From positions 1 to 30,932 of IMG/VR virus record IMGVR_UViG_2529293142_000025: a stretch of DNA of 30,932 bases. The stretch is one strand, 5' to 3'. The translations under genes and the position numbers were made by a program. Below, piece after piece: positions 3,406-30,932 of the stretch (the first letter of the stretch is position 1; each line of letters opens with the position of its first letter). Under the pieces are notes generated by a model. The model was given only the letters and a program-made list of their open reading frames with translations. It was not told where the DNA came from and made no database searches. This DNA comes from a virus (lineage: Duplodnaviria > Heunggongvirae > Uroviricota > Caudoviricetes).

Positions 3406-3809
3406 AGCTGGCGACCGCCTGCACCGAACATCGTGATCAACTGATAAAATTCAGCGCCATATCGGGTGTTATTCCAGAAGCCTGCATCAGGATTCAGCGT
3501 CGCGCTGATGTCATAACTGACACTTACCTTGTCAACGGACTTTGAGGACTGAACACCATTGGTTGAGCCGCCAGGGCCACCAGCCAGCATCGCCCTGCTG
3601 TCAGCCGCCCAGAGCGTCATGTAGTGCGCAACGAACAATCCGGCAAAGTACGGAAACAACTTTTTGCCGGTGACGTTTTCGCTCAGCAGTTCATCTGCCA
3701 GATTCAGACGAAACTGGATTTGCGCTTCGGGATATTTGGCAGGGTCAGCAAACTGCGGGAAGTCGCGGCGAAAATCACTTACCGCTGGCAGACTTTGATT
3801 CTTTGGCAT
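3402..3809 (-). CDS. phage structural protein (head completion/connector-like)
   Basis: 135 aa ORF within operon. Confidence 0.4.
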
Positions 3810-13800: not shown

Positions 13801-13875
<75 letters not shown>

Positions 13876-13878
13876 ATA

Positions 13879-13954
<76 letters not shown>

Positions 13955-14929: not shown

Positions 14930-15090
14930 AATGACGCCCTCTGGTGGTTTCTTAATAACTCACCACCGACGACGCCAATCGTCTGGTGGTGAACTGTGCA
15001 GGGTTGGCGTAACCGGGAAACCGACCGGCGCGGATCTCTCCGCCCCCACACAGCCCACCATAATTCAGATGTGCGCGTGCATACGACAAT

Positions 15091-15112
15091 AAAAAACACG
15101 CTCGCGGCGTGT
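15091..15112 (-). terminator. tR-prime-like terminator downstream of late promoter
   Basis: minus-strand hairpin ACACGCCGCGAGCGTGT followed by TTTTTTATT. Confidence 0.5.
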
Positions 15113-15173
15113 ATCTGTCGCGGTCTCTATCCAGGACGCCAATCCCGACGCCAGATTTTGCTGGCGCGTGAGG

Positions 15174-15203
15174 AATATAGCCCCGGATAACAGATTGAGT
15201 CAA
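15174..15203 (-). promoter_or_regulatory. late promoter (pR-prime-like), Q-dependent antitermination region
   Basis: minus strand TTGACT, 18 nt spacer, TATATT; the -35 overlaps the Q stop codon, as in lambda. Confidence 0.5.
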
Positions 15204-17198: not shown

Positions 17199-17354
17199 TT
17201 ACTCCTCAGGTTCGTAAGCTGTGAAGACAACGACCTCCGTCTGGCCGGTTCGGATTCGTACCTCGCAGAGGTCTTTCCTCGTTACCAGTGCCGTCACAAT
17301 GACGGTTAAACAGATGACGATCAGGGCGATTAACATCGCCTTTTGCTGCTTCAT
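17199..17354 (-). CDS. hok: Hok/Gef family type I toxin
   Basis: 51 aa MKQQKAMLIALIVICLTVIVTALVTRKDLCEVRIRTGQTEVVVFTAYEPEE; an in-frame upstream mok-like extension starts at 17411; structured leader with inverted repeats at 17451-17490. Confidence 0.8.
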   Translation of the reverse strand: MKQQKAMLIALIVICLTVIVTALVTRKDLCEVRIRTGQTEVVVFTAYEPEE

Positions 17355-17542
17355 AGCCTGCTTCTCCTTGACCTTTCGGTCCGTAAGAGGCAATCTATAT
17401 GTGTCTAGCATATAGGGGCCTCACTTCGATTTATAGTCGGGTGGGGCTTTTATCTATCTGCCGTTGGTGTTCATGCCTGAGGCAGATAGCCTCAAGCACC
17501 CGCAGCAATTCTACTTAACTCTCCTTTTCCCGCAAACCGTTT

Positions 17543-28380: not shown

Positions 28381-28587
28381 ATGACAAAAATTATGAGATA
28401 TGACGATGTTAAACCATGTCCGTTTTGTGGTTGTCCATCTGTTACAGTGAAAGCAATTTCAGGATATTACCGGGCAAAATGCAACGGATGCGAATCCCGA
28501 ACTGGCTATGGTGGAAGTGAAAAAGAAGCACTCGAAAGATGGAATAAACGAACTACTGGAAATAATAATGGAGGTGTTCATGTATAA
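28381..28587 (+). CDS. ralR: restriction alleviation protein RalR/Lar-like, Cys4 zinc-ribbon
   Basis: MTKIMRYDDVKPCPFCGCPSVTVKAISGYYRAKCNGCESRTGYGG...; start at internal ATG 28381. Confidence 0.6.
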   Translation: MTKIMRYDDVKPCPFCGCPSVTVKAISGYYRAKCNGCESRTGYGGSEKEALERWNKRTTGNNNGGVHV

Positions 28588-28768
28588 AATAACTGCCACT
28601 ATTGAAAAAGAAGGTGGCACTCCTACTAACTGGACAAGATATTCAAAATCTAAATTAACGAAATCAGAATGCGAAAAAATGCTCTCAGGGAAAAAAGAAG
28701 CAGGCGTGTCCAGAGAGCAGAAAGTAAAGCTGATAAATTTTAATTGCGAGAAACTTCTGTCCTCGTGA
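28580..28768 (+). CDS. ydaC: YdaC-like small protein
   Basis: 62 aa MYKITATIEKEGGTPTNWTRYSK...; GGAGGTG SD 5 nt upstream. Confidence 0.55.
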   Translation: MYKITATIEKEGGTPTNWTRYSKSKLTKSECEKMLSGKKEAGVSREQKVKLINFNCEKLLSS

Positions 28769-28868: not shown

Positions 28869-29156
28869 ATGGCAATGAATCTTGTGACACTCAAAACGTG
28901 GGGAAAACTCAGATATCCGGATAACCCACCATCAATATCAACGCTGAGACGATGGGCAAGGAATGGAAACATTTATCCTGCACCTGAACTACACGGGAGG
29001 AGTTACAGGGTGGTTCCGGAAGCTTTCTATATCAACCCAAATAAGGTTGATACCGATATAACACACCATCAGCCTAATGGGCGACAAGGGAGAGACAGTC
29101 CGTTACTGGAGAAGTTAAAACATGCAGCGGAAAAAATACGATCCCAATTTACCTAA
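28869..29156 (+). CDS. xis: excisionase (lambda Xis-like)
   Basis: ...LVTLKTWGKLRYPDNPPSISTLRRWARNGNIYPAPELHGRSYRV resembles lambda Xis; overlaps int start by 35 nt as in lambda. Confidence 0.6.
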   Translation: MAMNLVTLKTWGKLRYPDNPPSISTLRRWARNGNIYPAPELHGRSYRVVPEAFYINPNKVDTDITHHQPNGRQGRDSPLLEKLKHAAEKIRSQFT

Positions 29157-30198
29157 AAACTTAACATATCGAAGGAGGGACAAAGCATATTACTGGCGCA
29201 ACCCTCTGACGAAAGAAGAATTTACACTAGGTAAAATTTCAAGAAGAGATGCAGTAGCGCAGGCAATTGAAGCAAATCATTATATATACAAAAACTACTC
29301 TCCTGCTGCCTTAATTGAAAAACTAAAAGGGTTCGACTCATTTACTATGGCAGACTGGATTGAACGTTACAAAACGATTCTTATAAGGAGAAAAGTGTCC
29401 AGAAATACTTATAAAATTCGGGTAAATCAACTGGAGACAATAAAAGAAAAATTAGGAGGGGTTTTACTGACAGAAATAACCACTCGCCATATTGCCGAGT
29501 TTCTTGATTTGTGGATTGAAGGAGGGAAAAACACGATGGCAGGATCAATGCGTTCTGTGTTATCTGATATGTTCCGCGAGGCCATTGTTGAAGGACGTAT
29601 ATCTCAAAATCCAGTAACGCCAACAAGAGCACCGAAAATAGTAGTTACAAGAGAACGGCTGAAACTAAAGACATACAACTGCATCAGGGAGGCAGCAGAT
29701 CAACTTCCGACATGGTTCCCATTAGCTATGGACTTAGCCCTTGTAACAGGACAACGTCGCGAAGACATAACAAATATGCGGTTCAGTGAGATTTATGATG
29801 ATCGTCTCCACATCAGGCAAATTAAGACAGGAATGATGATTGCTATCCCCCTGTCACTCAGCCTTCCTGTCGCTGGTTTACGACTTGGTACAGTAGTTGA
29901 ACAGTGCCGCATGGTAAGTAGGGGGGATTATCTAATCAGTGCCGGGATTAGAAAAAACAGCCCTGACGGCAGCATTCACCCGGACGGCCTGACAAAGAAA
30001 TTTGTCGCAGCCAGAAAATTAACAGGTATCCAGTTCAGTGAAAACCCACCAACTTTTCACGAGATCAGAAGCCTGGCTGGACGATTGTACAAAGAAACAT
30101 GTGGGGAAGAATTTGCTCAACGTCTACTTGGCCACACATCGGAGAAGACAACAAAAATGTATCTTGATGAGAGAGAAAAAACGTACTTACTGCTCTGA
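29122..30198 (+). CDS. int: tyrosine integrase, lambda Int family
   Basis: 358 aa; N-terminal arm-binding-like [27 protein letters not shown] and C-terminal ...[15 protein letters not shown]...[15 protein letters not shown] align with lambda Int including the catalytic region. Confidence 0.85.
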
Positions 30199-30245
30199 TT
30201 TTAACGTAAATGGATTGTTAAATGTGTTTTGGTTGTGATATAACC

Positions 30246-30348
30246 AAAAAAGACCGGAATACAGAAATTCGAGTAAATTTCGAGTAATTTCGGGGAGACG
30301 TTTGCAACTAATTGATTTTAAATACAATTAAAAAAAGACCGAATACGA
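30246..30348. repeat. imperfect direct repeat AAAAAAGACCG(G)AATAC (30246-30263 and 30330-30348) flanking 11 bp tandem TTCGAGTAA units; candidate att core/arm sites at the prophage junction
   Basis: the second copy is the 3-prime half of the SdsR terminator; the first lies 86 bp toward int. Confidence 0.4.
30301..30328 (+). promoter_or_regulatory. sigma-70 promoter for RyeA
   Basis: TTTGCA, 16 nt spacer, TACAAT. Confidence 0.45.
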
Positions 30349-30432
30349 TTCCTGTATTCGGTCCAGGGAAATGGCTCTTGGGAGAGAGCCGTGCGCTAAA
30401 AGTTGGCATTAATGCAGGCTTAGTTGCCTTGC
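30330..30432 (-). ncRNA. sdsR: SdsR (RyeB) small RNA
   Basis: about 103 nt on minus strand starting GCAAGGCAACUAAGCCUGCAUUAAUGCC..., ending in hairpin GACCGAAUACAGGAAUCGUAUUCGGUC plus U7; sigma-S-like -10 TCTATTCTTAA just upstream; identity from memory. Confidence 0.6.
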
Positions 30433-30561
30433 CCTTTAAGAATAGATGACGACGCCAGGTTTTCCAGTTTGCGTGCAAAATGGTCAATAAAAAGCGTGGT
30501 GGTCATCAGCTGAAATGTTAAAAACCGCCCGTTCTGGTGAAAGAACTGAGGCGGTTTTTTT
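30336..30561 (+). ncRNA. ryeA: RyeA (SraC) small RNA, antisense to SdsR
   Basis: plus-strand transcript predicted from the TTTGCA/TACAAT promoter to the terminator at 30521-30561; fully overlaps sdsR on the opposite strand. Confidence 0.45.
30521..30561. terminator. bidirectional Rho-independent terminator (RyeA on plus, yebY on minus)
   Basis: hairpin AAAACCGCC...GGCGGTTTTTTT with U-tracts on both strands. Confidence 0.55.
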
Positions 30562-30590
30562 ATTGGAAATCAAAAGGCTATTTTAGGTAA

Positions 30591-30932
30591 TTAACAGAGT
30601 TTTTCAGCTCGTTCTATAAACGGTGCCAGACTCATTTTTTCGCCGGGATTGTTAGGATCATCAATCTGAATCACCGAAATGGGTTGGGCTTTAGTCTTCC
30701 CACTGGCAACTTCCTTTTGTGCGATATCGTTTAAAGGATACTGCACGAGGGTACTTGGGTTGATGACATACAAAGCATTACCCGGTCGGCAAGTCAGCAT
30801 CACCTCTTCGCGATTAAACGCCCATTTGTCTTTACCCACTTCAAAACGGCTGACGGTAATCACCTGCGGTGCAGCCAGCGCCGCTGCAGAACTGGTGAGT
30901 AACAGAAACGCCAGAATACTTTTTTTCATCAT
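30591..30932 (-). CDS. yebY: periplasmic protein YebY (signal peptide), chromosomal flank
   Basis: 113 aa with N-terminal signal peptide [20 protein letters not shown]; start codon at the window edge; gene neighbourhood ryeA/sdsR-yebY as in E. coli (from memory). Confidence 0.55.

Follow-up and report, generated by a model that had tools for sequence, protein, structure and literature searches.

A lambda-Int-family prophage junction in the terminator of the small RNA gene sdsR between pphA and yebY

Introduction

What becomes of a small RNA locus that is transcribed on both strands when a prophage occupies the terminator of one of its two RNAs? This question is raised by the right end of a Caudoviricetes sequence, IMG/VR virus record IMGVR_UViG_2529293142_000025, of which we analyzed positions 1 to 30,932—hereafter the window, 30,932 nucleotides in length. 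Between its integrase gene int and its right end, an earlier reading made from the letters alone—the sequence-only reading—had recognized the small RNA gene sdsR, its antisense partner ryeA and, beyond them, yebY, and had placed a prophage junction at the 3′ end of sdsR.

Small RNA genes have been described as targets of integration (Bobay et al., PMC3603311), and island catalogues use RyeB, that is SdsR, as a target name. The last 23 bp of ryeB are a phage att site, and lysogeny changes the 5′ part of ryeA as well as the levels of RyeA and RyeB (Balbontin 2008, as summarized in PMC7380047 and PMC3333887). In Escherichia coli K-12, SdsR and RyeA behave like a toxin–antitoxin pair, as the sequence-only reading had correctly quoted—overexpressed SdsR is toxic and is neutralized by RyeA. 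The ryeA promoter moreover represses sdsR by transcriptional interference, and transcription that starts at the sdsR promoter reads through into pphA (Choi et al. 2019, PMC6610125).

Here, we conclude that positions 30199–30590 of the window are the int-proximal junction of a temperate prophage of the lambda-Int family in the sdsR terminator, within the pphA/yebY interval—attL (B-O-P′) in the terms of lambda. We put the probability of this reading at roughly 0.93.

Genes and RNAs at the right end of the window

The following genes and RNA features frame the junction:

28875–29156, plus strand: xis, excisionase gene whose end overlaps the start of int (Pfam Exc, PF07825, E = 6.2e-14)
29122–30198, plus strand: int, a lambda-family tyrosine integrase of 358 aa, transcribed toward the att site
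30330–30433, minus strand: sdsR (ryeB), placed by Rfam RF00111 and by the K-12 sdsR annotation mapped onto the window
30345–30563, plus strand: bacterial part of ryeA (sraC), equal to nt 54–272 of K-12 RyeA; Rfam RF00101
30436–30466, minus strand: sdsR promoter as read from the sequence, with an extended −10 of the sigma-S type (TCTATTCTTAA, 30446–30436) and a −35-like TGGAAA 16 bp upstream
30520–30559, no strand: bidirectional hairpin AAAAACCGCC...GGCGGTTTTT, the RyeA terminator, in the interval between ryeA (plus) and yebY (minus); an inverted repeat complementary at 10 of 10 positions, to which the 3′ end of K-12 RyeA maps
30591–30932, minus strand: yebY, 113 aa, DUF2511 (E = 4.8e-45), a chromosomal gene adjoining sdsR/ryeA

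Rfam searches at gathering thresholds, which had been proposed as a check, place both RNAs far above threshold. SdsR_RyeB (RF00111) matches 30330–30429 on the minus strand with 118.1 bits (gathering threshold 38, model positions 1–100 of 100), and SraC_RyeA (RF00101) matches 30326–30470 on the plus strand, antisense to SdsR, with 179.1 bits (threshold 37, model positions 1–145 of 145). The Rfam score, the TCTATTCTTAA −10 and an 11-pair terminator stem bear out the claim of a minus-strand SdsR with a sigma-S promoter and a strong terminator, and yebY lies beyond RyeA as had been said. The claim of a plus-strand RyeA holds for the antisense RNA as such, but this is not the native gene, as its 5′ part is phage-derived.

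The SdsR body, its sigma-S promoter and the 3′ 219 nt of RyeA are 100% identical to K-12 over 30345–30689. The promoter, with a C just upstream of the −10 hexamer, matches the features described by Frohlich et al. (PMC3333887) for sdsR—C at −13, a TCTAYRCTTAA-like −10 and a site downstream of yebY. In vitro, sdsR is transcribed by sigma-S only (PMC6610125).

On the phage side, Int carries the Pfam domains lambda Arm-DNA-bind_1 (PF09003), Phage_int_M (PF22022) and Phage_integrase (PF00589), and its full length aligns with the lambda Int structures 5j0n/1z1b at E = 1.4e-71, the alignment taking in the catalytic Tyr region and the HxxR, LLGH and Y regions; it is 41% identical to HK022 Int. The excisionase annotation recurs in 228 RefSeq genomes.

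Further phage RNA elements were observed within the window. The RalA antitoxin sRNA (Rfam, 219 bits) and a ralR toxin ORF overlap in antisense orientation (28586–28764, minus, and 28580–28768, plus); together with the recE/recT-like genes just upstream, they make up a Rac-like early region, although the prophage does not sit at the Rac site. The segments 14982–15180 and 17352–17501 (both minus) hold a cluster of isrK, C4 antisense RNA and a c4-a1b1 target—an immunity or antirepressor control module of the P1/P7 type, to be compared with isrK of Gifsy-1—as well as a sok RNA of the hok/sok type (107 bits). Two neighboring phage-borne tRNA genes, tRNA-Gly(tcc) and tRNA-Thr(tgt), lie at 13801–13954 (minus).

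The att core is the SdsR terminator hairpin

Alignment with the unoccupied locus had been suggested as a way to define attB and the junction. In K-12 MG1655, pphA, ryeA/sdsR and yebY follow each other uninterrupted. The window is identical to K-12 over 30345–30689 and unrelated to it to the left of about 30329; in between, the two are similar, differing at 30335 and 30344. A four-way comparison of attB (K-12), attP (phage genome record PP818812, L003), the int junction (window and E. coli TUM1880) and the far junction (TUM1880) resolves the core as follows:

30337–30363, no strand: att core, identical with the SdsR terminator hairpin
30337–30346, no strand: left stem GACCGAATAC, phage-derived up to 30344
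30347–30353, no strand: loop GATTCCT, 7 nt
30354–30363, no strand: right stem GTATTCGGTC, bacterial from 30356

Strand exchange is confined to ACGATTCCTGT (30345–30355, 11 bp), with the terminator loop GATTCCT inside this interval, and the proposed junction at the 3′ end of sdsR is thereby placed in these 11 bp. As far as the other prophage end is concerned, the junction pairs were taken from relatives sharing the int end, the best complete E. coli genome covering at most 68% of window positions 1–25000. In TUM1880, whose int junction is 99.9% identical to that of the window, a 41-kb prophage ends beside pphA. Its far junction (attR) reads bacterial ...GACCGAACACGATTCCTGT and then phage tttcgtcaac, and the repeat copy expected by the sequence-only reading at the other end is found there as the matching sequence AAAAAGAGACCGAACACGATTCCTGT beside pphA. 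The attP of PP818812 consists of the int-side P′ arm, the core AAAAAAAGACCGAATACGATTCCTGT and the same far arm as in TUM1880. The core ACGATTCCTGT is thus common to the window, both TUM1880 junctions, the K-12 attB and the phage attP, with both ends seen in relatives. Within the window, the core pattern occurs once at up to three mismatches; the far prophage end lies outside.

The two 10-bp stem arms form inverted repeats around the 7-nt loop, as expected of core-type Int sites. The prophage entered the Rho-independent terminator of the chromosomal sdsR gene by site-specific recombination, for which the stem arms would provide the inverted sites of the core type and the loop the overlap region; through its near-copy of the left half of the site, the phage rebuilds the SdsR 3′ end upon integration. 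The assignment of GATTCCT as the overlap region and the exact cleavage positions are only putative because the limits of the exchange differ among lineages: where the window has 30344, L005 (about 3715–3736) shows the bacterial C (junction variant GAACCGAACAC), and where the window has 30356, L072 shows the phage T (variant GTTTTCGGTCC). These variants do not fit a single exchange interval, which points to later mutation, to gene conversion or to variation among attB/attP alleles.

A side observation concerns the label of PP818812, which is filed as 'Actinobacillus phage vB_Apl-pPE4' with the host Actinobacillus pleuropneumoniae. Its integrase is 98% identical to the window Int, and for an attP core it has the sdsR terminator of enterobacteria; this host assignment seems questionable.

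In the junction, the last ~15 nt of sdsR (30330–30344)—the 3′ stem half and the U tail—are phage DNA. The resulting terminator comprises an 11-pair stem and a 7-nt loop followed by a T run, folds with −15.8 kcal/mol (z −3.3) and is the single terminator-like site within 30100–30700. With the left half supplied by the phage, the stem is perfect on both strands; the hairpin of the plus strand changes from −11.1 to −15.4 kcal/mol, while that of the SdsR strand is unchanged at −15.8. An uninterrupted run of seven T replaces TCTCTTTTT after integration.

Arm-type sites and IHF consensus of the P′ arm

The phage DNA between the core and int is the P′ arm of the attachment site. Two predicted sets of sites lie in this arm:

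30265–30297, plus strand: three tandem arm-type Int sites, predicted equivalents of P′1–P′3, AAATTCGAGTA / AATTTCGAGTA / ATTTCGGGGAG
30305–30317, minus strand: predicted H′-like IHF consensus AATCAATTAGTTG (WATCAANNNNTTR), centered at −39 from the core center

The TTCGRG cores of the arm sites start at 30268, 30279 and 30289, which corresponds to −79, −68 and −58 from the core center, and TRF reports a tandem repeat at 30268–30292 (period 10–11, 2.4 copies, 93% matches). Both window strands together, 61.9 kb, contain 27 copies of TTCGRG (0.44 per kb per strand); the presence of three copies within 27 bp of one strand is beyond chance. The far (P) arm bears two more TTCGRG sites at +126 and +147 from the core center, and diverged far arms keep TTCGRR at +123/124 and at +135 to +146 in a separate alignment with its own numbering.

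Relatives from E. coli and Salmonella have the P′-arm TTCGRG sites in identical places. For IHF, the entire window has two consensus matches on both strands, one of which is the −39 site, and a Salmonella relative with an Int of 72.6% identity has the consensus at the identical position with different N bases (AATCAATGGGTTA). The geometry of arm and IHF sites is kept in this Salmonella relative and recurs across 15 distinct P′ arms as well as many diverged far arms. Three TTCGRG copies, their conserved spacing and an Int with the lambda arm-binding domain thus agree with the suggestion of the sequence-only reading that the 11-bp tandem units might be arm sites of Int. Going outward from the core, the P′ arm of the window hence consists of the IHF site at −39, the arm sites at −58, −68 and −79, and then a conserved block in which an extended −10 is followed by a second near-copy of the terminator half. 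Binding of Int and IHF to these sites is probable from the motifs and their geometry.

A conserved block with a near-copy of the terminator half

The block adjoins the arm sites on the int side:

30233–30271, plus strand: P′-arm block TTGTGATATAACCAAAAAAGACCGGAATACAGAAATTCG, with the extended −10-like TGaTATAAC at 30236–30244 and the terminator-half copy at 30246–30264

The near-copy had caught attention as an 18-bp repeat 86 bp toward int. A repeat is present, 84–86 bp away by register, but it is imperfect: AAAAAAGACCGGAATAC (30246–30262) agrees with AAAAAAGACCG-AATAC (30331–30346) in 16 of 17 positions once a 1-nt indel is allowed, and an ungapped comparison gives 72% identity over 25 nt. 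A search for the 18-mer, exact or with up to three mismatches, returns the terminator copy alone.

The phage records L003 and L006 both have the block in their attP. When 15 distinct arms are aligned, nearly every column of TTGTGATATAACC-AAAAAGACCGGAATACAGAAATTCG is invariant with variable flanks, and the conservation of the block exceeds that of the int 3′ end, of arm repeats 2–3 and of the spacer.

The sequence-only reading had called the repeat consistent with an att core. Seen this way, the near-copy would be the core itself, a duplicate produced by this integration or the scar of an earlier tandem integration in the host chromosome, for which the match to the terminator half at the given distance on the int side might speak. 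Four observations argue against this: the copy lies at −93 from the core center in the attP of E. coli-type and Salmonella phage records; it is almost invariant across the 15 distinct phage arms; the far junction bears the terminator-type sequence instead of the upstream copy; and homology to the unoccupied K-12 locus begins only at 30345. We regard such an origin as hardly credible. The core is the terminator hairpin, and the upstream copy is P′-arm DNA of the phage and not a product of integration because it resides at −93 in the attP of both types of phage. It is conceivable that an att half was captured anciently and is phage DNA today.

We also considered that the upstream copy might act as a second terminator or adopt another structure. 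Folds in 30236–30300 are not better than those of shuffled sequences on either strand (z −0.21 and −1.66), nor does the block by itself fold significantly, and this candidate was rejected.

The 5′ part of ryeA is displaced

The antisense RNA is affected differently from SdsR. The K-12 annotation of ryeA spans 1923066–1923337 and begins 53 nt away from the exchange interval in the direction of pphA. At the junction in the window, the native sigma-70 promoter of ryeA and RyeA nt 1–53 are missing and phage DNA takes their place; in TUM1880, the native 5′ segment of ryeA stays at the far (pphA) junction. As the phage DNA rebuilds the SdsR 3′ end, it would therefore replace the 5′ end and the promoter of the antisense ryeA, shifting the sigma-70 promoter and RyeA nt 1–53 across the prophage to its far end. 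If RyeA is still made at this junction, it would have to start in phage DNA.

The conserved block offers a candidate for such a start. Its extended −10, TGaTATAAC, points toward the core, and the native ryeA promoter of K-12 has TGtTATGGT 40 bp closer to the core. We consider with moderate confidence, from motif and conservation, that the block might be a phage-borne ryeA promoter, with an additional protein-binding part of attP as the alternative. The fuller version, in which 30233–30271 would act as promoter and leader in place of the native promoter and give a chimeric RyeA ~40 nt longer with a start near 30250, appears to us to have somewhat less than an even chance. It is favored by the near invariance of TGaTATAAC and of an upstream TGTTAAA over the 15 distinct arms, where the neighboring positions vary, by the native K-12 promoter likewise having a −10 of the TGn type, and by the 40-bp shift of the phage −10 away from the core. 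This shift may be compared with SraC in Shigella and Salmonella, which is ~35 nt longer with a −10 box ~35 bp further upstream (Frohlich et al., PMC3333887), and a Shigella flexneri genome (L004) carries exactly the same int and arm beside sdsR. However, the −35 is poor, the block may be conserved as a protein-binding part of attP, and ryeA fell after lysogeny by PhiW104 in the account of Balbontin 2008 given in PMC7380047. In addition, the Shigella strain of Frohlich et al. is BS176, whereas the int and arm are seen here in SFBU1023.

A combined scheme would have the lysogen repaired on both sides: the P′ arm would restore the SdsR terminator, and the conserved −10 would drive a chimeric RyeA whose leader contains a second complement of the SdsR 3′ end (30246–30264), so that the antitoxin arm is kept or retuned while pphA is cut off. 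We offer this scheme tentatively and think it rather unlikely as a whole.

Another promoter candidate, the sigma-70 hit TTTGCA-16-TACAAT at 30301–30328, was ranked below TGaTATAAC as a replacement for the ryeA promoter; its −10 is not in place in the Salmonella relative, and the sigma-70 scan gave two such hits versus 1.2 expected by chance.

Taken together with the K-12 maps and the published experiments, the insertion likely affects the expression of SdsR and RyeA, as the sequence-only reading had surmised. In a lysogen, interference from the ryeA promoter and read-through from sdsR to pphA would be inoperative across the prophage, and pphA would be uncoupled from the sdsR promoter, its normal driver by read-through. 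For PhiW104 in Salmonella, lysogeny was reported to lower ryeA and to raise ryeB (Balbontin 2008, in the summary of PMC7380047).

Occupancy of the locus

The locus is intact in 5191 of the 5426 complete E. coli genomes; this int junction is present in 228 (~4%) and this far junction likewise in 228. Strains of O26:H11, O103 and O111 are frequent among the best-matching genomes listed. A scan of genome contigs with Int returned two loci (E. coli and S. flexneri), too few for a survey across genera, and IMG/VR was used instead. There, 77 contigs have the sdsR-terminator core together with a phage far arm, the far arms being very diverged, and at least five unrelated families of int-side arms share the one core (IMG/VR contigs L007–L083). 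This diversity fits a hot spot, and several integrase lineages appear to converge on the sdsR terminator. Some of these arm families have TTCGGA repeats and one has ATGGCG/GTGGCGGCA repeats; the same contigs also include far junctions that come from other enterobacterial species.

The Shigella flexneri copy (SFBU1023, L004 3706–3847) has the same int junction. Its sdsR is degraded—81 bits versus 118, with substitutions in the terminator stem—and int is preceded by a frameshift element of the IS3 type (ALIL). This copy looks like a decaying remnant.

From here, one might suppose that the int–xis–att segment in general is a fixed, immobile remnant that marks an old lineage and is not an active attachment site. 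The Shigella copy, with its IS-type elements and degraded sdsR at the same junction, would agree with this, and the window itself shows the int half of the element alone. Nevertheless, int and xis are intact ORFs, phage genes run without a break over 30 kb of the window, a complete 41-kb prophage lies between both TUM1880 junctions, attP forms are present in a phage genome record and in IMG/VR contigs, and the element is scattered over O26, O103, O111 and other strains. An immobile remnant is thus very improbable, and the junction of a temperate prophage is the reading we retain.

Relation to known integration systems

The attachment site resembles lambda attP with its Int/Xis/IHF machinery. 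Int is homologous over all three domains; int is directed toward att, with xis upstream and overlapping; the inverted core sites flank 7 bp; and three arm sites and an IHF site are int-proximal with two arm sites distal. In lambda attP, H′ is situated near +35, P′1–3 near +55 to +80 and P1/P2 between −110 and −150, and the distances of the arm and IHF sites in the present attachment site are close to these. The arm-type consensus of lambda is C/AAGTCACTAT, in contrast to the TTCGRG type of the window. Unlike lambda, whose core is the gal–bio intergenic site, the core here is the terminator hairpin of a small RNA, and ~70 extra conserved bp extend from P′3 to the int stop codon.

With integration into the 3′ ends of tRNA and tmRNA genes, the site shares a symmetric stem and 7-nt loop within a small structured RNA gene and a phage near-copy that keeps the RNA intact. 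The difference to these targets is that the sdsR locus is transcribed on both strands, so that ryeA, on the opposite strand, necessarily has its 5′ end and promoter replaced when the SdsR 3′ end is rebuilt.

The closest precedent is the ryeB site of PhiW104 in Salmonella enterica (Balbontin, Figueroa-Bossi, Casadesus, Bossi, J Bacteriol 2008). As far as the available accounts of that work convey, the target is the same—the last ~23 bp of ryeB, a terminator internal to ryeA—and so is the outcome, a replaced 5′ part of ryeA, with lower RyeA and higher RyeB reported. In the design of its core and arms, the window agrees with the Salmonella phage whose Int is 72.6% identical. Compared with the PhiW104 case, the element described here has an E. 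coli host, a Rac-like early region and pphA as its neighbor on the far side. With respect to SdsR/RyeA and the sdsR–pphA operon of K-12 (Choi et al. 2019, PMC6610125), the lysogen has the ryeA promoter and pphA tens of kilobases away across the prophage.

A literature search for E. coli prophages named at pphA, yebY or sdsR found nothing specific. The ryeB terminator has been known as a hot spot and att site since 2008, and the window is an ordinary E. coli instance of it; the conserved promoter-like block in the phage arm is possibly the sole new point.

Implications

The published Salmonella ryeB hot spot is also used in E. coli, and our analysis adds the anatomy of the site at the level of single bases; it is no new kind of biology. 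Lysogens would keep SdsR with a terminator half made by the phage, whereas the native ryeA promoter and pphA would be disconnected from the locus. If both sides of the locus are indeed repaired by the phage arm, the longer SraC of Shigella and Salmonella would be a transcript of a phage arm. This bears on the regulation of SdsR, RyeA and pphA in pathogenic strains and on the use that is made of SraC data from Shigella and Salmonella.
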